A stretch of DNA of 64,000 nt from Escherichia phage AV112, in the sequence record OR352942.1; one strand, 5' to 3'. This document shows positions 5,017 to 53,600 of the stretch, in pieces. A program made the translations under genes and the position numbers. Position 1 is the stretch's first letter; every line of letters starts with the position of its first letter. The notes under the pieces were generated by a model. That model was not told where the DNA came from, did not search any database, and worked only from the letters and a program-made list of their open reading frames with translations.

Positions 5017-6588
5017 ATGAAATTTAATATCTTAAGTTTGTTTGCTCCATGGGCAAAAATGGACGAACGTGATTACAAAGACCAAGAAAAAGAAAATTTA
5101 GAATCTATCACCGCACCAAAATTGGACGACGGCGCTAAAGAATATGAAGTATCTGAAAATGAAGCACAGCAAACATATAATGCTATGTTTCAGAGAATGT
5201 TCGGTAGTCAAGAACCAGGGCTCAAATCAACCCGTGAATTAATCGATACGTATCGAAATTTGATGACGAACTATGAAGTGGATAACGCGGTCTCTGAAAT
5301 AGTTTCCGATGCTATCGTGTATGAAGATGATACAGAAGTCGTTTCTATAAATTTAGACAACACAAAATTTAGTCCAAATATCAAATCAATGATGTTGGAT
5401 GAATTTAATGAAGTGTTAAATCATTTATCTTTCCAACGTAAAGGTTCAGATCATTTTAGACGTTGGTATGTGGATTCTCGAATTTTCTTCCATAAAATTA
5501 TTGACCCTAAACGCCCTAAAGAAGGTATTAAAGAGCTTCGTCGTTTAGACCCACGTCAAGTTCAATATGTCCGTGAAGTTATTACAACCACTGAAGCCGG
5601 TGTTAAAATAGTCAAGGGTTATAAAGAATATTTCATTTATGACACATCACAAGAATCTTATGCTTGTGATGGTCGCATATATGAAGCTGGCACAAAAATA
5701 AAAATCCCTAAAGCCGCGATTGTTTATGCCCATTCTGGTTTAGTTGATTGTTGTGGTAAAAATATCATCGGTTATTTGCATCGGGCTATTAAGCCAGCGA
5801 ACCAATTAAAACTTCTTGAAGATGCCGTCGTAATTTATCGTATTACTCGTGCTCCCGATCGTCGTGTATGGTACGTTGATACAGGTAATATGCCTTCAAG
5901 AAAAGCAGCAGAACATATGCAACATGTTATGAATACGATGAAAAACCGTATTGCGTATGATGCTACTACAGGCAAGATTAAAAACCAGCAGCATATTATG
6001 TCGATGACCGAAGATTATTGGTTACAACGACGTGACGGTAAAGCGGTAACAGAAGTTGACACATTACCAGGTGCAGATAATACTGGAAATATGGAAGATG
6101 TACGTTGGTTCCGTAATGCTCTTTATATGGCTTTACGTATTCCTATTACCCGTATTCCAAGTGACCAAGGTGGTATACAGTTTGATGCTGGTACTTCTAT
6201 TACGCGAGATGAATTGACATTTGGTAAATTTATTCGTGAGCTGCAACATAAATTTGAAGAGATATTCCTAGACCCGCTTAAAACTAATTTAATTCTTAAA
6301 GGAATTATTACAGAAGATGAGTGGAATGATGAAATAAATAATATTAAGATAAAATTTCATCGGGATAGTTATTTCTCGGAATTAAAGGATGCTGAGATTC
6401 TGGAGCGTCGCATTAATATGCTTCAGATGGCCGAACCATTTATTGGTAAATATATTTCTCACAGAACAGCTATGAAAGATATTCTTCAGATGTCTGACGA
6501 GGAAATTGAACAAGAGGCTAAGCAAATTGAAGAAGAGTCGAAAGAGGCTCGTTTCCAAGACCCCGACCAAGAACAAGAGGATTTTTAA
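5017..6588 (+). CDS. 20: Portal vertex protein gp20
   Basis: 523 aa (T4 gp20 524); late promoter 29 nt upstream; synteny. Confidence 0.95.
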
Positions 6589-32639: not shown

Positions 32640-32819
32640 TTATGCAGCAACCTTTCCAAAACGAGAAGCATCATCTCGAAGAACTGCACGTGCTCTGCGC
32701 ATGATCTTCTCAACCGTTTGATTAATACGAGAGTTCGACCCACGCTTGTATCCAGCGCGTTTAGAGGTACCATCAACTTTCTTTTCGACTGCTTTCTTTG
32801 CTTTAGCTTGTTTTGCCAT
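32640..32819 (-). CDS. Small lysine-rich basic protein (59 aa)
   Basis: Hand-translated MAKQAKAKKAVEKK...; followed by UUCG hairpin terminator; just below track cutoff. Confidence 0.45.
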   Translation of the reverse strand: MAKQAKAKKAVEKKVDGTSKRAGYKRGSNSRINQTVEKIMRRARAVLRDDASRFGKVAA

Positions 32820-33088
32820 TATAAATTCTCTTTAAATGAAAATGCAGGACTTATTGACATTGCCTGCGCAAGCCCTCAAGGGGAACATAGGTTTTGGATA
32901 TTTAACGACAGGATAACCATAAACCTCGTCATCATACCAACCACGACTTAGACAGATAACCTTTTTCTGACGCGTGATAGTACAAAATACATTCAAGAGG
33001 TACACCGTAAAATTGTCGGGGCGGTACTTCTAAAACATACCGATTCGCAAATCGATAATCAGACAATTCGACGGCTCCTCGATTTAAC

Positions 33089-33337
33089 TTACTTCAGGGT
33101 AATAACAAAATGACGAACTGCTTTACGTGCTGCAGAAGCCAGAGGCTTAGCATATTTCAATTCATCTTTCTGGACCAGGATATCGCGAAGATCGGCTTGT
33201 GCTGGATTCAGATGTTTGAAATACTGTAAGATTTCAAGAGCTTCGGCTTCAACATCAATAGATGCACCGTAATTGTCATGGCCATTATTCCATGCATGGC
33301 GTTGCAGTTCAAGAGCGTGTTGTAATTGTTTAATCAT
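33089..33337 (-). CDS. rIII: rIII lysis inhibition accessory protein
   Basis: 82 aa as in T4 rIII; position upstream of gene 31. Confidence 0.85.
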   Translation of the reverse strand: MIKQLQHALELQRHAWNNGHDNYGASIDVEAEALEILQYFKHLNPAQADLRDILVQKDELKYAKPLASAARKAVRHFVITLK

Positions 33338-33461
33338 TTTAAATTCTCAATTCGAGATAATATTTAGTAGCCACGTTCGTCTGAATTTCACCTTCTTTCG
33401 ACAAGTCTCTCAGTTGTAGGCTACCGCTTAGAAGAGTGTTCTCTTCATATAGTTATTTATA

Positions 33462-33794
33462 TCACTTATAAAGACACGGAATAGCTTTATAGTGGCATGT
33501 TACGAATTTCTGTTTAATTTCTTTAGGTTGTTTAAGACCCAAAGCCACAAATGGATGTGGAACATTTCGAATTTGTCCAACTGGTAGTGGAGTCAAATCA
33601 CCGACTTCAACAAAACCTTCAGGAACATCAGGACCTACAGAATGAACTACACATAGTTCAGGAACTTCACCTTGAACACGTTTACCAATCACAAGTCCTG
33701 ATTCTGTAACTTCTTCATCACCTGCTTGAGCGGGTTCAGAAACCAGAATGACATATTCACCAACAGCACGAATTGGGAGTTGTACTTCAGACAT
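33462..33794 (-). CDS. 31: Co-chaperonin gp31 (GroES analogue)
   Basis: 110 aa; [21 protein letters not shown]... matches T4 gp31. Confidence 0.9.
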
Positions 33795-33851
33795 CTTATT
33801 TCCTTGTTGTTTGACGATAGATTAATAATACTATACTATTTGTAAAGCATA

Positions 33852-34160
33852 TTACATAAGAAGCAAACGTTCTACCGGAGAGCCATCAACCGAAATTACT
33901 TTATCAAGGCGGAAAGAACGCCACTGACCTAACTTGGTATCGAATGCTCGAACTGATTCACGAGGTTCATAACGAACTTCTGTTGCTGGATTGTTATTTT
34001 CATATTTGACTTCAAGTTCATCGCGCGAAGCAAACATAGTGCGTACCTCGCCGTTAGCCTTTTCAAATACAACACAATGAACGCCTACAGACAGAATAGT
34101 TTTAATACGTTCACGAAGAACCATAGTTTCTTGTTCAGTTAAAATCATATTATTCACCAC
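33852..34160 (-). CDS. Hypothetical protein (31.1-like)
   Basis: 102-aa ORF between 31 and cd. Confidence 0.6.
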   Translation of the reverse strand: MVNNMILTEQETMVLRERIKTILSVGVHCVVFEKANGEVRTMFASRDELEVKYENNNPATEVRYEPRESVRAFDTKLGQWRSFRLDKVISVDGSPVERLLLM

Positions 34161-34731
34161 AAAAGTTTCGGATTTGTTCCCAATTCAGAGAACGAAGATT
34201 ATTACGAGAGTACTGAATTACTTCAATACCGGCTTGTTTTAGAATGTCTGCCCAATTTTCAGGAGATCTGTCATATAATTCTGCGTATACAACCTTTTTA
34301 ATACCTGACTGCGTAATAGCTTTAGTGCAATCAGGACACGGAGAAAGCGTCGTATATAACGTAGCACCTTCAATAGAATTACCTTTACGAGCTGCAAACA
34401 AAATTGCGTTCAGTTCCGCATGGATTTCGTTATTAGCAGACCATGCACTATGAGCCGCTCGATGTTCTTTAGCCAAAACAAAATTATCTGCCCGTCCAAA
34501 TGCCGTAGTGCCTTCTTTATGTCCAGCAACGATGACCGGACTTGGTTTATTCTTCAACCAACCATTTTCAGATGCATGTTCACAACAGTTAATTCCACCT
34601 GCGGGTGAACCATTATATCCAGTAGAGATAATGCGTCCATCTTTTTCAATGACGGCACCAACTTTCCATGAACAACATTTTGATTCTTGAGAAATCAAAT
34701 AAGCAATTTGAAGATACGTGCTAGCTTTCAT
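34150..34731 (-). CDS. cd: dCMP deaminase
   Basis: 193 aa as in T4 Cd; zinc motifs HAELNA and PCPDC. Confidence 0.9.
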   Translation of the reverse strand: MKASTYLQIAYLISQESKCCSWKVGAVIEKDGRIISTGYNGSPAGGINCCEHASENGWLKNKPSPVIVAGHKEGTTAFGRADNFVLAKEHRAAHSAWSANNEIHAELNAILFAARKGNSIEGATLYTTLSPCPDCTKAITQSGIKKVVYAELYDRSPENWADILKQAGIEVIQYSRNNLRSLNWEQIRNFCGE

Positions 34732-35723
34732 TATTGAACCTTATTAATATAAGTTAACAACTCTTTAGTTTGTTCCCAACTGATGCACGCATCGGTAACG
34801 GAAACGCCATAGGACATATTATCAGAAATTTTTTGATTTCCTTCATGTAGGAATGATTCTATCATAATTCCTTTGACCAAATCATTAGCTGCTAAATTTT
34901 TACCAATACCAATTTGATTGCTATAATACCCATCAGCGTTTGCATGGCTACAGTCAACCATTACATAATGATTCAGACCTAATGCACTTGCTTTGTTAGA
35001 AGCTTCTTGAATATCAGAAGAATGATAGTTCGGGCCATTAGTCCCGCCACGCAATACGATATGCGTATTCTGATTACCTTCAGCTTCAACAATGCCTACA
35101 GTACCATCGACATCCATACCCATATACCGATGAGGCCAGGCGGCACTATACATCGCGTCTGTAGCTACTTTAATAGAACCATTGGTTGCGTTCTTGAAGC
35201 CTACGCACATCGGTAGACCTGAAGCAATTTCACGATGTGTCTGACTTTCAGTCGTACGGGCGCCAATAGCAACCCATGAGAAAATACCAGAAAGATACTT
35301 AATCGTGAATGGGTCTAATACTTCAGTTGCTAATGGAAGTCCCATACGTAGAAGTTTACGACACAATGTTCGTGCAACTATAAGACCGTGGTTCATATCA
35401 AAACTTCCGTCAAGATATGGATCATTTACAAGACCTTTCCAACCTACGGTAGTTCGAGGCTTTTCAAAATAAACGCGCATCACTAACAGAACATTAGGAA
35501 GACGAGTTTGAAGTTCAGCCAGACGTTTGCCGTATTCAACAGCAGCAATAGGGTCATGAATTGAACAAGGACCTACAACAATAAGTTTGCGTGGGTCTTC
35601 ACCGTTCATAATCGAATTAACTTGTTCGCGATGAGAAGCCACTTGTGATGCGTAAGCTTCCGACAAAGGAATAATCTCAGCCAGTTCTTTTGGAGAAATA
35701 AGTTTTCTGATGACAGGTAACAT
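34731..35723 (-). CDS. 3-deoxy-D-arabino-heptulosonate 7-phosphate (DAHP) synthase, class I (AroG/F/H-like)
   Basis: 330 aa; motifs VVGPCSIHD, VYFEKPRTTVGWKGL, IGARTTESQ, DCSHAN, EGNQ match E. coli AroG metal/PEP-site motifs; stop overlaps cd start (TAATG). Confidence 0.85.
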   Translation of the reverse strand: MLPVIRKLISPKELAEIIPLSEAYASQVASHREQVNSIMNGEDPRKLIVVGPCSIHDPIAAVEYGKRLAELQTRLPNVLLVMRVYFEKPRTTVGWKGLVNDPYLDGSFDMNHGLIVARTLCRKLLRMGLPLATEVLDPFTIKYLSGIFSWVAIGARTTESQTHREIASGLPMCVGFKNATNGSIKVATDAMYSAAWPHRYMGMDVDGTVGIVEAEGNQNTHIVLRGGTNGPNYHSSDIQEASNKASALGLNHYVMVDCSHANADGYYSNQIGIGKNLAANDLVKGIMIESFLHEGNQKISDNMSYGVSVTDACISWEQTKELLTYINKVQ

Positions 35724-35843
35724 AACAATCCTTAGGAGATATAAACAGATTCTGATTCAACAATACCTTTAACCGGATTAGACAGGCTAAGTTGGTAGTG
35801 CTCAGATTTATGACCATTCATGATAGTAATGAGATAGCTCTCA

Positions 35844-36080
35844 TTATAGTGTTCCATATACTCGAGTTGCTTCAACAAGACCATCACTGCCTAATTTAAG
35901 ATTAGTAATTTGGTCACCATCTTTAGGATTAACGATTATGAGAAAAGAACGAGGAGATTCTTGAATAACTCGTAATGTTGCATCCTGGAAACGTTCAGAC
36001 ACTTTATTGATGAGTGTTTGAGCGAATTCTTTTACTTTAATCTGAAATTCGTGTACTGTAATTGGATTTTCACTTAGCAT
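35844..36080 (-). CDS. Hypothetical protein (cd.x-region)
   Basis: 78-aa ORF with early promoter and GAGGAAA RBS. Confidence 0.55.
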   Translation of the reverse strand: MLSENPITVHEFQIKVKEFAQTLINKVSERFQDATLRVIQESPRSFLIIVNPKDGDQITNLKLGSDGLVEATRVYGTL

Positions 36081-36104
36081 TTCGATTTCCTCATTTTGGT
36101 AGAG

Positions 36105-36139
36105 TTAATCATATCACAACTCTACTGTGTTGTAAACTT
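36105..36139 (-). promoter_or_regulatory. Early-type promoter GTTTAC-N18-TATGAT
   Basis: Upstream of ORF 35844-36080; 8-bp inverted repeat flanks the -10. Confidence 0.55.
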
Positions 36140-36413
36140 AAATTGCAAAACATTTAATTTCTTGTGAATCGAAATCAACTTCACATTGAATTACTAGATC
36201 AGCGTCAAGTCCAAACACAACAATCACATGAGCCGAGCTTGGCAACAGTGTAACAGACACAGAATCCACTTGGTCTGGCACCAGCGTATTCAAAACGTAG
36301 AGTAGTTCAGAGTGGATCTTAAGCTCGGTGGCCGTATCCGGCTTATCAAAGAAATGATTTGCGATAATCTGACTAAAAACTACCTTTACAATTTCAGAAT
36401 ATTTAGGGAACAT
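36138..36413 (-). CDS. Hypothetical protein (cd.x-region)
   Basis: 91-aa ORF. Confidence 0.55.
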   Translation of the reverse strand: MFPKYSEIVKVVFSQIIANHFFDKPDTATELKIHSELLYVLNTLVPDQVDSVSVTLLPSSAHVIVVFGLDADLVIQCEVDFDSQEIKCFAI

Positions 36414-36420
36414 AATTACC

Positions 36421-36645
36421 TCAGTGCACAGTATTTACTTTAACTCGAACAACAAATCGCTCGGTTGGTTCACCTACAGGAACAAACTCTACATGATATT
36501 CACCTTTGTAACGAGTATTCAGGTCGTTACGAATTTCGGTAAGCTTGTTGATTAATGTAGAACTCATATTAAGTCCCACTAGTTTACGAAGCATTTTGTA
36601 TGCTTCATCTTCGATTTCATGATGTTTATCGTACATAGTTTTCAT
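36421..36645 (-). CDS. Hypothetical protein (cd.x-region)
   Basis: 74-aa ORF. Confidence 0.55.
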   Translation of the reverse strand: MKTMYDKHHEIEDEAYKMLRKLVGLNMSSTLINKLTEIRNDLNTRYKGEYHVEFVPVGEPTERFVVRVKVNTVH

Positions 36646-36816
36646 TTAACCATTCAATTGCCTGGTCGACGTTATCAAATATACTGCCGTCCAACCATTC
36701 TTCATGTTCATAGTCCAGCACATCAATACCGAACCGTCCATTTACTAAAGGCCATACTACAAACAAATATTCTTTATGCTGTTCGATGGCCTCAATCACT
36801 TCATATAATCGTTTCA

Positions 36817-36817
<1 letters not shown>
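36626..36817 (-). CDS. Hypothetical acidic protein (cd.x-region)
   Basis: 63-aa ORF overlapping pseT stop. Confidence 0.5.
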
Positions 36818-37903
<1,086 letters not shown>

Positions 37904-37904
<1 letters not shown>

Positions 37905-38203
37905 TATTTTATTCCTAAGAAAATTTCAAGAATACGAATGTTATGCTCGCGCCGGTCTTTATTAATTTCAGCAACGTTTTTATTAATTGACGTACTTCTA
38001 ACGTTTGAAGAAATAAATTTAATCATATGACTTTTGAGTTGTTGCAAATCCAACCCTTTTTCTTTAGCAGCTTTACGAAGAGCTTTACCTGCTTCATCTA
38101 GTGCCTTTGCTGCATCTTTGTCATAATTGCCAAGTGACATTCCACGGCAGATATCAATATACTCATCAGACCGTTTGATGTAATTCTCTAGTAATGTTTT
38201 CAT
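37904..38203 (-). CDS. Hypothetical protein
   Basis: 99-aa ORF with perfect early promoter upstream. Confidence 0.55.
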
Positions 38204-38225
38204 TTAGATTTCCTCAATTATCCAT

Positions 38226-38262
38226 AGGAGCATTATACTCTGCTCCTGAGAGTTTGTAAACT
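38226..38262 (-). promoter_or_regulatory. Early promoter GTTTAC-N18-TATAAT
   Basis: Perfect -10; 7-bp inverted repeat AGGAGCA/TGCTCCT brackets the -10. Confidence 0.65.
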
Positions 38263-38485
38263 ATTTTACTAAAGATTCAATATACTCGTGAAGGGCTTTA
38301 GTCGCTACTGCCCACTTATTCTGATATTCATTTTTCAGATTAGCACGAGACTGAACTAACAAGCGGTCATTAGTCGGAGGCAAAGATTCTAATCGTTGAA
38401 TCTGTCGCCCATAAATCATAGCCGCCATTTCAGATTCATAGATAAGCCCTTTAATGTATTCATGCTGTTCTTTAGTCATTGGCAT
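38261..38485 (-). CDS. Hypothetical protein (pseT.1-like position)
   Basis: 74-aa ORF downstream of spanin pair. Confidence 0.55.
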   Translation of the reverse strand: MPMTKEQHEYIKGLIYESEMAAMIYGRQIQRLESLPPTNDRLLVQSRANLKNEYQNKWAVATKALHEYIESLVK

Positions 38486-38766
38486 TTTTCCTCTTTTAAA
38501 CCACTACGATAATAACATAACATAGTCTTCTGGTCATGTATATATCTTTTTACGTCGTTTAACCAGATACGAAATTCTTGAGAGTCTTCAAATGGCATTC
38601 CAACCCATGGATTACCATCAATAACCTTTACTTGCCATTTCTGGTTATATTCAACAATAGATTCAGGCCATGGCGGATGTAAAGTTTCTTTAGGGCTTAA
38701 GGGCACATCCTGGGCACATCCAGCCAAAATACCAATAGATAATACAACTGTGGTTAATTTAATCAT
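38476..38766 (-). CDS. Outer-membrane spanin (lipoprotein; T4 PseT.2-like)
   Basis: 96 aa; signal peptide plus lipobox LAGC; immediately downstream of and overlapping the i-spanin ORF. Confidence 0.75.
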   Translation of the reverse strand: MIKLTTVVLSIGILAGCAQDVPLSPKETLHPPWPESIVEYNQKWQVKVIDGNPWVGMPFEDSQEFRIWLNDVKRYIHDQKTMLCYYRSGLKEEKCQ

Positions 38767-50662: not shown

Positions 50663-53600
50663 ATGGCCGACATCAAACGTAAGTTCAGAGCCGAAGACGG
50701 TCTGGACGCCGGTGGCGACAAGATTGTTAACGTAGCATTAGCCGACCGTACAGTAGGTACTGATGGCGTAAACGTTGACTTCCTGGTACAAGAAAACACC
50801 GTTCAAGTATATGATTCTACGCGCGGATATAACAAAGGATTTGTTGTTCTTTATGACAACCGTTTATATCAAGCAATAAATGATATCGTGTCTCCTTCCG
50901 GGGCATTTAACCTTTTACAATGGCGTGCAGTTCGTACCGATGCACAATGGATAACTGTCTCTTCTGGGACTTATCAACTTTCTTCAGGTGAATCGATTTC
51001 GGTTAACACTGGTGCCGGCAATGATATGGTTTTCACATTGCCAAATGCGCCGGTTGATGGTGACACTGTTGTTTTGGCTGATATTGGTGGAAGAACCGGG
51101 ACAGTTAAAGTACAGATTAACGCGTCTGTGCAGAGTATTTTAAACTTTAGAGGTGAACAAGTTCGTACAGTTTTAATGACGCGCCCACGTTCACAACTAT
51201 TGTTTGTGTTTAGTAATCGTTTGTGGCAGATGTATATTACCGATTATGGTAAAGAATCAATCACTGTTACACCTGCGGCACCATATCAAGCACAAGCAAA
51301 TGATTTTATCGTTCGTCGTTTTACTAGTGCAGCACCAATCAACATTACACTTCCACGTAATGCTAACAATGGTGATATAATCAGCCTAGTCGATTTAGAT
51401 AGATTAAACCCACTGTATCATACAATTGTTAAAACATTTGATGATACAACGTCTATTGGTGAAGTCGGGACTCATATTGCCGAAGGCAGAAATGACTCTG
51501 ACGCGTTTTTTGTTTTTGATGCTGCAAATAGTTTATGGCGTATATGGGAAGGCGACCAGAAATCGCGTCTTCGTATTATCCGTGTGGATTCAAATATTCG
51601 TCCAAATGAAGAAGTTCTTATTTTTGGCACAAATAACGCTACAGCCGGAACTATTAATCTTACGCTGCCTTCTGGAATTTTGAGTGGTGACACCGTTAAA
51701 ATTTCAATGAACTACATGCGTAAAGGCCAAACAGTAAAAATTAAAGCTGCCGAAGGTGATACAATTGCTTCTTCTGTTGCGTTGCTTCAGTTCCCTAAAC
51801 GTTCGGAGTATCCACCTGATGCACAATGGGTCTCTGTTACTGAACTAGAATTCAATGGCACTACTTCATATGTTCCTGTATTAGAATTAGCGTATATCGA
51901 AGACACCGTTGCTGGTACGCGTTATTGGGTTGTTAAACAAAACGTCCCAACTGTAGAACGTGTCGATGCTGGAACTGATACAACTAGAGCTCGTGTAGGT
52001 GTTATTGCTCTTGCAACTCAGGCACAGGCAAATGTTGATTTTGAAAATTCTCCGGCTAAAGAAGTTGCTATTACTCCTGAAACGTTGGCAAATCGTACAG
52101 CAACTGAAGCTCGACGTGGTATCGCCAAAATTGCTACAACAGCACAAGTTAACCAGAATTCCACAGCAACATTTGTAGACGATACTATTGTTACGCCTAA
52201 AAAATTAAATGAGCGTACAGCAACTGAAACTCGTCGCGGTCTTGCTGAAATTGCTACTCAGACTGAAACCGATGCTGGTCTTGATGACACAACGATTATT
52301 ACGCCTAAGAAATTACAGGCACGTCAGGGTTCCGAAACACTATCGGGTATAGTTAAATATGTATCAACTACTTCTGCTACTCCTGCCGAAACTCGTGGGG
52401 CTGCAGGCACTAATGTTTATAATAAAACCGTAAATAATTTAACTATTTCTCCTAAAGCCCTTGACCAATATAAAGCAACTTACGCCCAACAAGGTGCAGT
52501 AATTTTAGCTATTGATAGTGAAGTAATTGCTGGACAATCTCAGTCTGGATACTCTCATGCTGTAGTAACTCCTGAAACACTACATAAGAAAACTTCTACT
52601 GATGGACGTATTGGTTTAATTGAAATTGCTACGCAAGCAGAAACTAATGCTGGGACTGATTATACACGTGCAGTAACGCCTAAGACGTTAAATGATAGGA
52701 GAGCGACGGAAGGATTATCCGGCATAGCCGAAATTGCTACGCAAGTTGAATTTGATACTGGAACTGATGATACTCGTATCTCGACTCCACTGAAAATTAA
52801 AACTCATTTTGATTCTTCTGACCGTACCAGTGTTAATTCTGATTCCGGACTTATTGAAGAAGGAACCTTGTGGAACCATTATACTCTTGATATTTCTAAA
52901 GCAAATGAAACACAACGTGGTACACTTCGCGTAGCGACCCAGGCAGAATCTAATGCAGGAACTTTAGATGATGTTCTTATTACTCCTAAAAAGCTTTTAG
53001 GGACTAAGTCCACTGAAACGTCTGAAGGTGTAATCAAGGTTGCAACCCAGTCTGAAACTGTGACTGGAACGTCAGCGAACACTGCTGTATCTCCTAAGAA
53101 TTTAAAATGGATTGTGCAGAGTGAACCAACATGGGCTGCTACTACAGCAATTCGCGGATTCGTTAAAACTTCATCCGGTTCTATTACATTCGTTGGTAAT
53201 GATACAGTCGGTTCTACACAAAACTTAGAGCTATACGAGAAAAATAGCTATGCAGTATCACCGTATGAATTAAACCGTGTATTGGCAAATTACTTGCCAT
53301 TAAAAGCAAAAGCTGCTGACGCAAATTTATTAGATGGCCTAGATTCATCTCAGTTCATTCGTAGGGACATTGCACAGACGGTTAATGGTTCACTAACCTT
53401 AACCCAACAAACGAATCTGAGTGCCCCTCTTGTATCATCTAGTACGGCTACGTTTGGTGGTTCGGTATCTGCTAATAGTACATTAACTATTTCTAATACA
53501 GGTGCTTCAACTCGCTTAATATTTGAAAAAGGTCCACAAACTGGAAACAACCCTGCTCAGGCGATGAATATCCGTGTATGGGGTAACCAATTCGCCGGCG

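Follow-up and report, generated by a model that had tools for sequence, protein, structure and literature searches.

Feedback-resistant variants of the DAHP synthase AroG have been described in detail: P150L renders AroG completely feedback-resistant, S180F and F209A/S also give resistance to feedback, Q151/Q152 and S180/S181 touch the main chain of bound Phe or Tyr, and a D155 salt bridge stabilises the inhibitor site (PMC9529685). Secondary-metabolite clusters are also known to carry DAH7PS copies of their own, of the PhzC type, on which aromatic amino acids have no inhibitory effect (PMC6435475). For phages, the only mention of a DAHP synthase that we found was a single line on a domain, in the genome paper of phiC120 (PMC8022965). 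Full-text literature searches turned up no experiments on a phage DAHP synthase, and nothing citable on AroF N8K or on T4 folate. The phage gene is already known, with a DAHP synthase annotation in about 200 phage records (PHROG 5045), and in itself it is an auxiliary metabolic gene of an ordinary kind. What our analysis adds to the existing annotation is a single phage clade, a rewired inhibitor site and a mobile cassette.

Identity, active site and fold of the phage DAHP synthase

The window analysed was a 64,000-nucleotide stretch of Escherichia phage AV112 (OR352942.1), the DNA of which is 100% identical to that of Escherichia phage AV113 (Mosigvirus). An intact ORF of 330 aa with an ATG start was found on the minus strand at the cd locus.

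34731..35723, minus strand: DAHP synthase (3-deoxy-7-phosphoheptulonate synthase), type I-alpha, 330 aa (profile, alignment, model)
34150..34731, minus strand: dCMP deaminase (cd), 193 aa (ORF, profile matches)

A sequence-only reading of this DNA had proposed a phage class I DAHP synthase directly upstream of cd from six AroG/AroF/AroH motifs, all of which were found in the order claimed, and this core reading proved correct, the enzyme being of type I-alpha and AroF-like. Profile comparisons confirmed, at the level of sequence, the assignment of the ORF to type I-alpha DAHP synthases: Pfam DAHP_synth_1 (PF00793) matched with E = 2e-74 and 250.3 bits (cutoff 25.5), the NCBIfam aroFGH equivalog TIGR00034 with 426.4 bits against a cutoff of 173.2, and PRK12755 with 453.8 bits (cutoff 343). 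The protein is a full-length member of PHROG 5045 (E = 1.5e-181), a family categorised as 'moron, auxiliary metabolic gene and host takeover'. Scores for the AroH-specific and AroG-specific NCBIfam models were 384 bits (cutoff 463) and 362 bits (cutoff 568), respectively. Among proteins of solved structure, the best match is E. coli AroF (PDB 6AGM, E = 1e-104), which is also the closest E. coli relative at 51% full-length identity.

Alignment with AroG showed that the metal ligands Cys61, His268, Glu302 and Asp326 correspond to C53, H260, E289 and D311 in the phage enzyme, so that the four ligand types anticipated from the sequence are all intact, and these positions are invariant across 128 aligned homologues (31 phage and 97 bacterial). 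The PEP-binding residues R83, K88, R156, K177 and R225 are the equivalents of AroG R92, K97, R165, K186 and R234, which are likewise invariant in the 31 phage and 97 bacterial homologues, and the KPRT motif is kept (R90 and T91, equivalent to AroG R99 and T100). At 114 of 124 columns conserved in bacteria the phage enzyme has the same residue. The AlphaFold model (pLDDT 92.5) is a (beta/alpha)8 barrel with an N-terminal extension and a beta6a/6b hairpin, in which helices 11-17 and 22-39 and strands 198-203 and 209-214 are present. It superimposes on AroG (1KFL, 1QR7) and N. meningitidis DAH7PS with a TM of 0.96 and an rmsd of 1.3-1.5 A, and among the matches listed in the fold comparison 50/50 were DAHP synthases (TM 0.94-0.96). 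The catalytic machinery is unchanged, and from this we infer that the protein would be enzymatically active.

Inhibitor pocket and N-terminus

An unbiased scan of 31 phage-clade and 97 bacterial homologue sequences was used to identify columns with a fixed difference between the two groups. No more than 6 of the 330 columns qualified, and in AroG numbering the changes are P150I, Q151K, D155G, S180P, F209Y and T223A (I141, K142, G146, P171, Y200 and A214 of the phage protein). The phage residues occur in 30-31 of 31 phage-clade sequences (97-100%) and in 0 of 97 bacterial sequences. The bacterial state, which AroG/F/H also show, is P, Q, D, S, F and T, and a few sequences at most depart from it at any one column; the clade in which these six residues are fixed has diverged to 57% identity. 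Five of the six changes (P150I, Q151K, D155G, S180P and F209Y) fall within a set of 14 inhibitor-site and feedback-resistance positions taken from the literature (hypergeometric p = 3.7e-7).

The N-terminus had been described from sequence as about 8 residues shorter than that of AroG, and AroG residues 1-8 indeed have no counterpart in the phage enzyme. All phage sequences have 5-9 residues ahead of AroG L16 in comparison to 13-50 in bacteria, and the short N-terminus is real, since there is no in-frame start codon farther upstream. We take the N-terminal tip (AroG residues about 1-10) to be part of the inhibitor site of the neighbouring subunit, with AroG Asp6/Asp7 presumably taking part in inhibitor binding (1KFL structure). 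The features that mark the feedback site of the AroF/AroG/AroH isoenzymes (P150, Q151, D155, S180, F209 and the N-terminal tip) are absent from the phage enzyme. The suggestion that a shorter N-terminus might alter feedback control is strengthened by the pocket substitutions, which are much stronger evidence. The pocket no longer has the residues by which the host isoenzymes hold the Phe, Tyr or Trp backbone, and from the pocket substitutions together with the eight missing N-terminal residues we predict that Phe/Tyr/Trp feedback is lost or re-tuned.

Within the phage clade, pocket conservation was 0.99 in comparison to 0.95 at other conserved positions, which counts against simple inactivation because a dead pocket would be expected to drift. 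The regulatory architecture is kept in the model (N-terminal helices and beta6a/6b hairpin). The retention of AroF-type P148 and G212 counts against deregulation, as does the conservative nature of F209Y; a Lys at 151 could still bind a carboxylate, which points in the same direction.

Distribution and origin of the phage gene

The DAHP synthase protein is 100% identical to those of phages ST0 and EP02SG. The AV113 protein is recorded as WPK34689 and that of Bas47 as bas47_0048. PHROG 5045 members come from Mosigvirus, Kanagawavirus, Kagamiyamavirus, Marfavirus, Winklervirus, Bragavirus and related phages, and tblastn returned a single-piece, full-length match in 212 of 212 phage records. A presence/absence survey of the cd-pseT locus showed that at least seven T4-like lineages carry the gene between pseT and cd, while the site is empty in RB69 and in about 19 further records, indicating that the gene is dispensable. 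T4 has only small ORFs here, as had been stated in the sequence-only reading (cd.1 to cd.5 between cd and pseT), and the cd-pseT interval is variable, with unrelated small ORFs and a homing endonuclease occurring there. The gene thus has the attributes of an auxiliary metabolic gene, being host-type, metabolic, non-core and intact, and absent from T4 and RB69.

The phage copies were monophyletic in 30/30 neighbour-joining bootstraps, and the phage clade was sister to the AroF clade (NJ tree from a numpy distance matrix). The dN/dS value of the phage DAHP synthase was <1. Composition and codon use had been judged to match the surrounding phage DNA, and this was borne out: GC content is 40.4% in comparison to 38.1% for the window and 52-53% for host aroF/G/H, GC3 is 28% in comparison to 50-57% for the host genes, and codon usage correlates with that of the phage gene pool at 0.94, in comparison to an average of 0.89 for the other phage ORFs, 0.69 for aroF and 0.51 for aroG. 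Recent capture from E. coli was rejected, given only 44-51% identity to AroF/G/H, an ameliorated composition, and bacterial homologues that plateau at 50-55% with no close donor among them.

A cassette between direct repeats in Mosigvirus

In Mosigvirus the DAHP synthase gene lies on a 1.1-kb cassette between copies of a 15-nt repeat, which had 2 matches in the window in comparison to 0 expected by chance.

34720..34734, minus strand: right copy of the 15-nt direct repeat, ATAATGAAAGCTAGC, at the DAHP synthase stop and cd start (repeat search)
35833..35847, minus strand: left copy of the direct repeat, ATAATGAGAGCTATC, at the cd.2 stop followed by a cd-start relic (repeat search)
35732..35857, minus strand: 41-aa ORF (PHROG 15876), C-terminal half of a second cd.2 homologue (protein comparison)
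34620..35940, approximate boundaries, no strand: low-diversity island in five Mosigvirus genomes (variable-site counts)

RB69 has one repeat copy, at the cd.2/cd junction, and lacks the DAHP synthase. The 41-aa ORF is 51% and 46% identical to Kanagawavirus cd.2 in comparison to 28% for the neighbouring cd.2, and we read it from these comparisons as a putative relic brought in with the cassette. Variable sites among the five Mosigvirus genomes amounted to 2% in the island, in comparison to 9% for the remainder of cd and 33% for cd.3. The diversity of the cassette is about tenfold below that of the flanks. The cassette appears to have reached Mosigvirus from another T4-like phage. Alternatively, the presence/absence polymorphism may have arisen through deletion in RB69, which is less likely than insertion because of the truncated foreign cd.2 fragment and a diversity far below that of the flanks. 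The long residence that had been proposed for the gene accordingly applies to the T4-like phages taken together and not to Mosigvirus, where the gene sits on this low-diversity, apparently arrived cassette.

The cd junction and expression

The signals and neighbouring gene considered for expression were as follows.

35729..35733, minus strand: Shine-Dalgarno-like AAGGA, 5 nt upstream of the DAHP synthase ATG (sequence reading)
34739..34742, minus strand: AAGG Shine-Dalgarno of cd itself, 7 nt upstream of cd (sequence reading)
35844..36080, minus strand: cd.2 homologue (DUF7320, PHROG 1504), first gene of the presumed early transcription unit (profile matches)
36108..36136, minus strand: promoter-like TTTACA-17-TATGAT with TG extension, in the cd.3/cd.2 gap (consensus match only)

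The stop codon TAA of the DAHP synthase (34733..34731) shares its final A with the cd ATG, giving the TAATG overlap reported earlier. Translational coupling had been concluded from this arrangement; the stop/start overlap is real, but the coupling does not follow, as cd has its own Shine-Dalgarno. RB69, without a DAHP synthase, has an identical TAATG junction between cd.2 and cd, and the overlap therefore belongs to the cd 5' junction and not to the DAHP synthase. The early nucleotide-metabolism setting that had been described agrees with the position of the gene directly upstream of cd in that minus-strand region. At the position equivalent to 36108..36136, the annotation of T4 shows an early promoter, Pe133295, and this correspondence weakly suggests early expression, promoter-like sites being not above chance in number (18 observed, 15.6 expected). 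A terminator scan found no minus-strand terminator, and an Rfam scan of 33000..38500 at E <= 1 returned no RNA element, and thus no known leader or riboswitch. The DAHP synthase is probably transcribed early with cd.2 and cd.

Proposed role and alternative interpretations

We consider it reasonably probable that the gene encodes a competent, metal-dependent DAHP synthase that serves Enterobacterales T4-like phages as a feedback-free accessory gene sustaining chorismate flow. The phage enzyme would condense phosphoenolpyruvate and erythrose-4-phosphate to DAHP, which would feed the remaining shikimate-pathway enzymes of the host. Not being shut off by aromatic amino acids, as its pocket suggests, it could maintain the supply of carbon to chorismate once host gene expression has ceased and during inhibition of the host's AroG/F/H. 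The end uses of this chorismate may include aromatic amino acids for virion proteins, p-aminobenzoate/folate (td, frd and hydroxymethylase) and quinones.

Among these uses, it is conceivable, albeit rather unlikely, that the extra chorismate is made specifically for p-aminobenzoate/folate synthesis in the service of td, frd and dCMP hydroxymethylase. T4 uses folates, baseplate included, and the gene adjoins cd, with td, frd and nrdAB about 10 kb off on the same strand; a metagenomic T4-like contig also has frd and td about 4-5 kb upstream of pseT-DAHPS-cd. However, no pab or fol biosynthetic genes lie alongside in the window, the adjacency to cd may be accidental because the cd-pseT interval is a variable region, and the cofactor is required in catalytic amounts only whereas aromatic amino acids are used in bulk. 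An ordinary Tyr-sensitive AroF-type isoenzyme, providing extra capacity after host shut-off under normal feedback, would be in line with the Tyr-sensitive AroF-type label of several GenBank records, with AroF, from the sister clade of the phage enzymes, as the nearest relative both among solved structures and in E. coli (51%), and with the retained P148, G212 and modelled regulatory elements. We regard it as unlikely, since no phage sequence keeps either of the residues that hold the main chain of the inhibitor (K stands in place of Q151/Q152, and P in place of S180/S181), P150 has become I where AroG P150L is fully resistant, D155 has become G, the N-terminal tip is gone, and the AroG- and AroH-specific NCBIfam scores are under their cutoffs.

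The same substitutions could instead reflect a pocket re-tuned to another, phage-relevant effector (a carboxylate or phosphate metabolite, nucleotide- or folate-linked), amounting to viral control of shikimate entry. Fixation of the six residues (97-100%) in a clade diverged to 57% identity, pocket positions at least as conserved as other conserved phage-clade positions, and a cationic Lys at a ligand-contacting position are what such a pocket would show, but the conservation is also explicable by dimer-interface roles or active-state locking. We know of no candidate ligand, and hold this interpretation to be distinctly unlikely. A different function altogether, as a KDO8P-synthase-like enzyme or an inactive moonlighting protein, is very improbable: PF00793 includes KDO8P synthases too, and LPS biosynthesis is mentioned in the phiC120 genome paper (PMC8022965), but the phage protein keeps KPRT and every metal and PEP ligand of DAHP synthases, the listed fold matches are 50/50 DAHP synthases and 114/124 bacteria-conserved columns are retained. 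This candidate was rejected on the aroFGH equivalog score (426 bits, cutoff 173) and the conserved ligands.

The feedback-free accessory DAHP synthase that we favour is a sharp and cheaply testable prediction, as the natural substitutions lie at positions that engineers mutate for feedback-resistant DAHP synthases. If it is true, the phage clade would be a source of ready-made deregulated DAHP synthases, and a virulent phage would override allosteric control of host biosynthesis instead of merely supplying more enzyme. Gene-plus relatives (Bas47/AlbertHofmann of the BASEL collection, and AV113) and the gene-minus relative RB69 are available, and these natural plus/minus relatives allow a direct test of a long-standing question, namely whether it is for folate or for aromatic amino acids that T4-like phages depend on the shikimate pathway.

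Comparison with known systems

AroF (6AGM) and the phage enzyme have in common the fold, the metal and PEP ligands and the AroF-type P148 and G212, whereas the phage enzyme has short deletions at AroG 86, 289-293 and 315-316 and a GC3 of 28% against 50%. PhzC-type enzymes (type IIB, from phenazine clusters) are bacterial and of structural type II, whereas the phage enzyme is viral and of type I-alpha, and PhzC insensitivity arises from lost helices and a new quaternary structure and not from point substitutions in the pocket. The engineered AroG/AroF alleles (P150L, S180F, Q151 variants and F209A/S) are altered at the same positions as the phage enzyme (PMC9529685), although the residues differ, with I, K, P and Y in the phage in comparison to the engineered L, A/L/N, F and A/S. 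In contrast to these alleles, the phage set is natural, combines six residues and is fixed across the whole phage clade.

Identity of the phage enzyme

The DAHP synthase gene and the adjoining dCMP deaminase gene (cd) occupy the following positions:

34731..35723, minus strand, DAHP synthase, 330 aa, ATG start (ORF listing)
34150..34731, minus strand, cd, dCMP deaminase, 193 aa (Pfam and PHROGs searches)

The six motifs by which a sequence-only reading had recognised a DAHP synthase were all present in the translation in the claimed order, and this identity was confirmed by matches above cutoff to Pfam DAHP_synth_1 (E = 2e-74, 250 bits, cutoff 25.5) and the NCBIfam aroFGH equivalog TIGR00034 (426 bits, cutoff 173). 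PRK12755 was also matched (454 bits, cutoff 343), and scores against the AroH- and AroG-specific NCBIfam models were below those models' own cutoffs. In PHROGs the protein is a full-length member of phrog_5045, labelled 'phospho-2-dehydro-3-deoxyheptonate aldolase' in the auxiliary metabolic gene category. Alignment with the host isoenzymes, using MG1655 aroG, aroF and aroH as reference genes, gave 48% identity to AroG, 51% to AroF and 44% to AroH, and E. coli AroF (6AGM) was the nearest solved structure by sequence (E = 1e-104). All four metal ligands were kept (AroG C61, H268, E302 and D326 correspond to phage C53, H260, E289 and D311), as were the PEP/E4P residues R92, K97, R99, T100, R165, K186 and R234 (AroG numbering); counterparts of AroG residues 1-8, 86, 289-293, 315-316 and 346-350 are missing. 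An AlphaFold model made from a 38-sequence alignment (pLDDT 92.5, pTM 0.91) matched E. coli AroG and N. meningitidis DAH7PS (TM 0.96, rmsd 1.3-1.5 A) and retained the N-terminal helices and the beta6a/6b hairpin. The active site and fold of the enzyme were thereby shown to be intact.

Over the surrounding 2 kb the sequence shows 100% identity to that of Escherichia phage AV113 (OR352943.1; Straboviridae, Tevenvirinae, Mosigvirus), whose record labels the identical ORF as DAHP synthase. Window positions are one higher than those of the AV113 record. A single-piece, full-length tblastn match was found in 212 phage records, nearly all labelled DAHP synthase, aldolase, AroF or AroG, so at annotation level both the presence of the gene and what it encodes were known before. 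No experimental study of a phage DAHP synthase was found in the literature, where the sole mention was a domain note for phage phiC120. The initial observation was confirmed, as neither a lack of family matches nor a lost catalytic ligand, either of which would have spoken against it, was seen, and its interpretation proved essentially right.

Gene junctions and transcriptional context

An AAGGA sequence lies 5 nt ahead of the DAHP synthase ATG and AAGG lies 7 nt ahead of the cd ATG, both read from the sequence. No in-frame start codon occurs upstream of the DAHP synthase ATG and the short N-terminus is therefore real. The gene had been described as translationally coupled to cd through a TAATG overlap. 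This overlap is present (minus strand ...GTT CAA TAA TGA AAG..., where TAA and ATG share one base), but the same junction joins cd.2 to cd in RB69, so the overlap belongs to the cd start and does not mark a particular coupling to DAHP synthase.

Also nearby are the genes for gp31.1 (WYL_2), cd.2 (DUF7320), cd.3 (DUF7355) and PseT. From pseT to gp31.1 every gene is on the minus strand and no minus-strand terminator-like site was found. The best-placed promoter-like site was:

36136..36108, minus strand, TTTACA-17-TATGAT with TG, in the cd.3|cd.2 gap

T4 has an annotated early promoter, Pe133295, at the matching position. As promoter-like sites were no more numerous than expected by chance, the site is weak evidence for transcription. 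The DAHP synthase region gave no Rfam matches.

Several database labels look wrong, including 'tail fibers protein' for the gp31.1 WYL_2/SH3 protein (33852..34160), 'glycogen branching enzyme' for a 59-aa ORF (32640..32819), 'ribD riboflavin biosynthesis' for cd in O157 typing phages, and 'olfactory receptor-like protein' in the HX01 RefSeq record. The AV113 record also carries a misc_feature, 'Dupl_ends_SPAdes' (window ~51556..51682, within the gene for the long tail fibre), which flags a possible assembly-end duplication.

Distribution and phylogeny

A search of 5.8 billion proteins returned a phage group of homologues (57-98% identity, 319-343 aa) followed by a bacterial plateau at 50-55% identity that included Pontiella, Planctomycetota and enterobacterial AroF, and there is therefore no close bacterial donor. 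In a neighbour-joining tree the 31 phage-clade sequences were monophyletic in 30/30 bootstraps, with the clade containing E. coli AroF as sister. Base composition (GC 40.4%, GC3 28%) was similar to that of neighbouring genes and unlike host aroF/G/H (GC 52-53%, GC3 50-57%), and codon usage correlated at 0.94 with pooled phage ORFs, in agreement with the phage-like composition first reported. Recent capture from the host is ruled out by this composition and codon usage.

The pseT-cd interval holds the DAHP synthase gene in six further lineages:

Kanagawavirus (Entb_45, PEi26)
Kagamiyamavirus (EcS1)
Marfavirus (Marfa)
Winklervirus (CHI14)
Bragavirus (PM2)
A metagenomic T4-like contig

In these lineages zero to two small ORFs separate the gene from cd. 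The ORF in this position in Serratia phage CHI14 (L009 3998..4339) is homologous to T4 cd.1 (L011 3697..4035; 30% identity, E = 1e-10), and the older gene order was therefore cd.2-DAHPS-cd.1-cd; cd.1 is lost in AV113. In T4 itself the locus holds cd.1 to cd.5 and nothing else, in line with the initial reading. The DAHP synthase gene is maintained in >200 genomes. In Proteus phage PM2 a homing endonuclease gene (L010 1606..2322) lies between pseT and DAHP synthase, underlining the interval as an insertion hot spot. Aeromonas phage HJ05 (79 kb, not T4-like) encodes an unlabelled homologue (L018 3899..5062; 38% identity) in an unrelated genome, probably an independent acquisition.

A mobile cassette in Mosigvirus

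RB69, the Mosigvirus type species, lacks the DAHP synthase gene and its cd.2 abuts cd. By DNA alignment, the RB69 junction consists of the AV113 cd.2 end (left) and the AV113 DAHPS-end/cd-start (right). Two features mark the corresponding 1.1-kb cassette:

35833..35847 and 34720..34734, 15-nt direct repeat ATAATGARAGCTAKC bounding the cassette (2 copies only, 0 expected by chance)
35732..35857, minus strand, 41-aa ORF (PHROG 15876; annotated 'hypothetical protein') immediately upstream of DAHP synthase, corresponding to the C-terminal half of an additional cd.2

In RB69 (L012 ~6245..6262) and some 19 further records only one repeat copy is present and DAHP synthase is absent, and cassette presence or absence thus reads as a clean indel. 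The 41-aa ORF shares 51% and 46% identity with Kanagawavirus cd.2 in comparison to 28% with the adjacent cd.2, and probably represents a non-functional remnant from the donor phage; the DAHP synthases nearest to the Mosigvirus enzyme are also from Kanagawavirus (77% identity). Among five Mosigvirus genomes, dS was 0.004-0.03 for DAHP synthase in comparison to 0.12-0.30 for the adjoining cd, within a low-diversity island from ~35940 to ~34620 (variable sites 2%, versus 9% in cd and 33% in cd.3) that suggests recent recombinational spread or a sweep of the cassette. A junction probe identified 20 empty-site records (including RB69, JK36, JK42, moha, mar005P1 and more distant phages) and about 139 split-site records. 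Together, the empty RB69 site, the repeat, the cd.2 relic, the nearest enzymes, the low diversity and the junction probe favour transfer of the cassette from a different T4-like phage through recombination, with putative breakpoints inside the donor's cd.2 (left) and in cd (right), followed by recent spread through the genus. The long residence proposed earlier consequently holds for T4-like phages generally but not for Mosigvirus.

The RB69 cd (L012 5743..6252) is annotated as 169 aa and its C-terminus diverges after ...DILK, whereas AV113 and T4 cd have 193 aa; this may reflect a frameshift, truncation or sequencing error in the reference.

Remodelling of the inhibitor site

Presumed allosteric positions were inspected first, followed by an unbiased scan of all columns in an alignment of 31 phage-clade sequences, 97 bacterial homologues and AroG/F/H. 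Columns were considered discriminating when at least 90% fixed in each group for different residues. Only 6/330 qualified, namely P150 to I, Q151 to K, D155 to G, S180 to P, F209 to Y and T223 to A (AroG numbering), and none of the 97 bacterial sequences had the phage residue at any of them. For AroG, a published study (PMC9529685) describes P150L as fully feedback-resistant and S180F and F209A/S as resistant. It also implicates Gln151 in inhibition by Phe, places Q151/Q152 and S180/S181 in contact with the backbone of bound Phe/Tyr, and ascribes to D155 a salt bridge stabilising the inhibitor region. Five of the six columns fell inside a 14-position set taken from the same study (hypergeometric p = 3.7e-7). 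At bacteria-conserved columns (>=90%) the phage consensus was the same in 114/124, indicating an enzyme otherwise untouched. In front of the residue matching AroG L16, all phage sequences have just 5-9 residues in comparison to 13-50 in bacteria, and this short N-terminus removes the equivalents of AroG D6/D7, which we take to contact the inhibitor from the neighbouring subunit.

We conclude from these alignments that a remodelled feedback site is the defining change of the phage clade, which most likely frees the enzyme from inhibition by aromatic amino acids. The pocket itself is not drifting, as within-clade conservation was 0.99 in comparison to 0.95 at other conserved columns. This qualifies the prediction, since the site could be under structural constraint or could have been re-tuned to a different ligand. 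The most divergent phage-clade member (protein P0022, metagenomic contig L016 2517..3515; 57% identity) retains Pro at AroG-150, although Lys at 151 and Pro at 180 are already in place, and it does not adjoin cd; it may represent a transitional state or insertion at another site.

Proposed role

The phage enzyme would be expressed early together with cd and would form DAHP from PEP and E4P irrespective of Phe, Tyr and Trp levels. This would supply the host AroB-to-AroC enzymes that survive and increase the availability of chorismate at a time when the host's own DAHP synthases are inhibited and not being replaced. The additional chorismate may plausibly serve folate supply or may provide aromatic amino acids for virion proteins, and the evidence does not favour folate: td, frd and nrdAB lie about 10 kb from the gene, and the window has no pab or fol genes. 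Beyond annotation, the analysis adds a specific, testable prediction of deregulation or re-tuning, based on the clade-specific rewiring of the inhibitor pocket shown here, and documents a mobile cassette for which related phages with and without the gene occur in nature. Phenazine synthesis has its own DAH7PS copies that are insensitive to amino acids, and unregulated extra copies are thus a known way to meet a special chorismate demand (PMC6435475).
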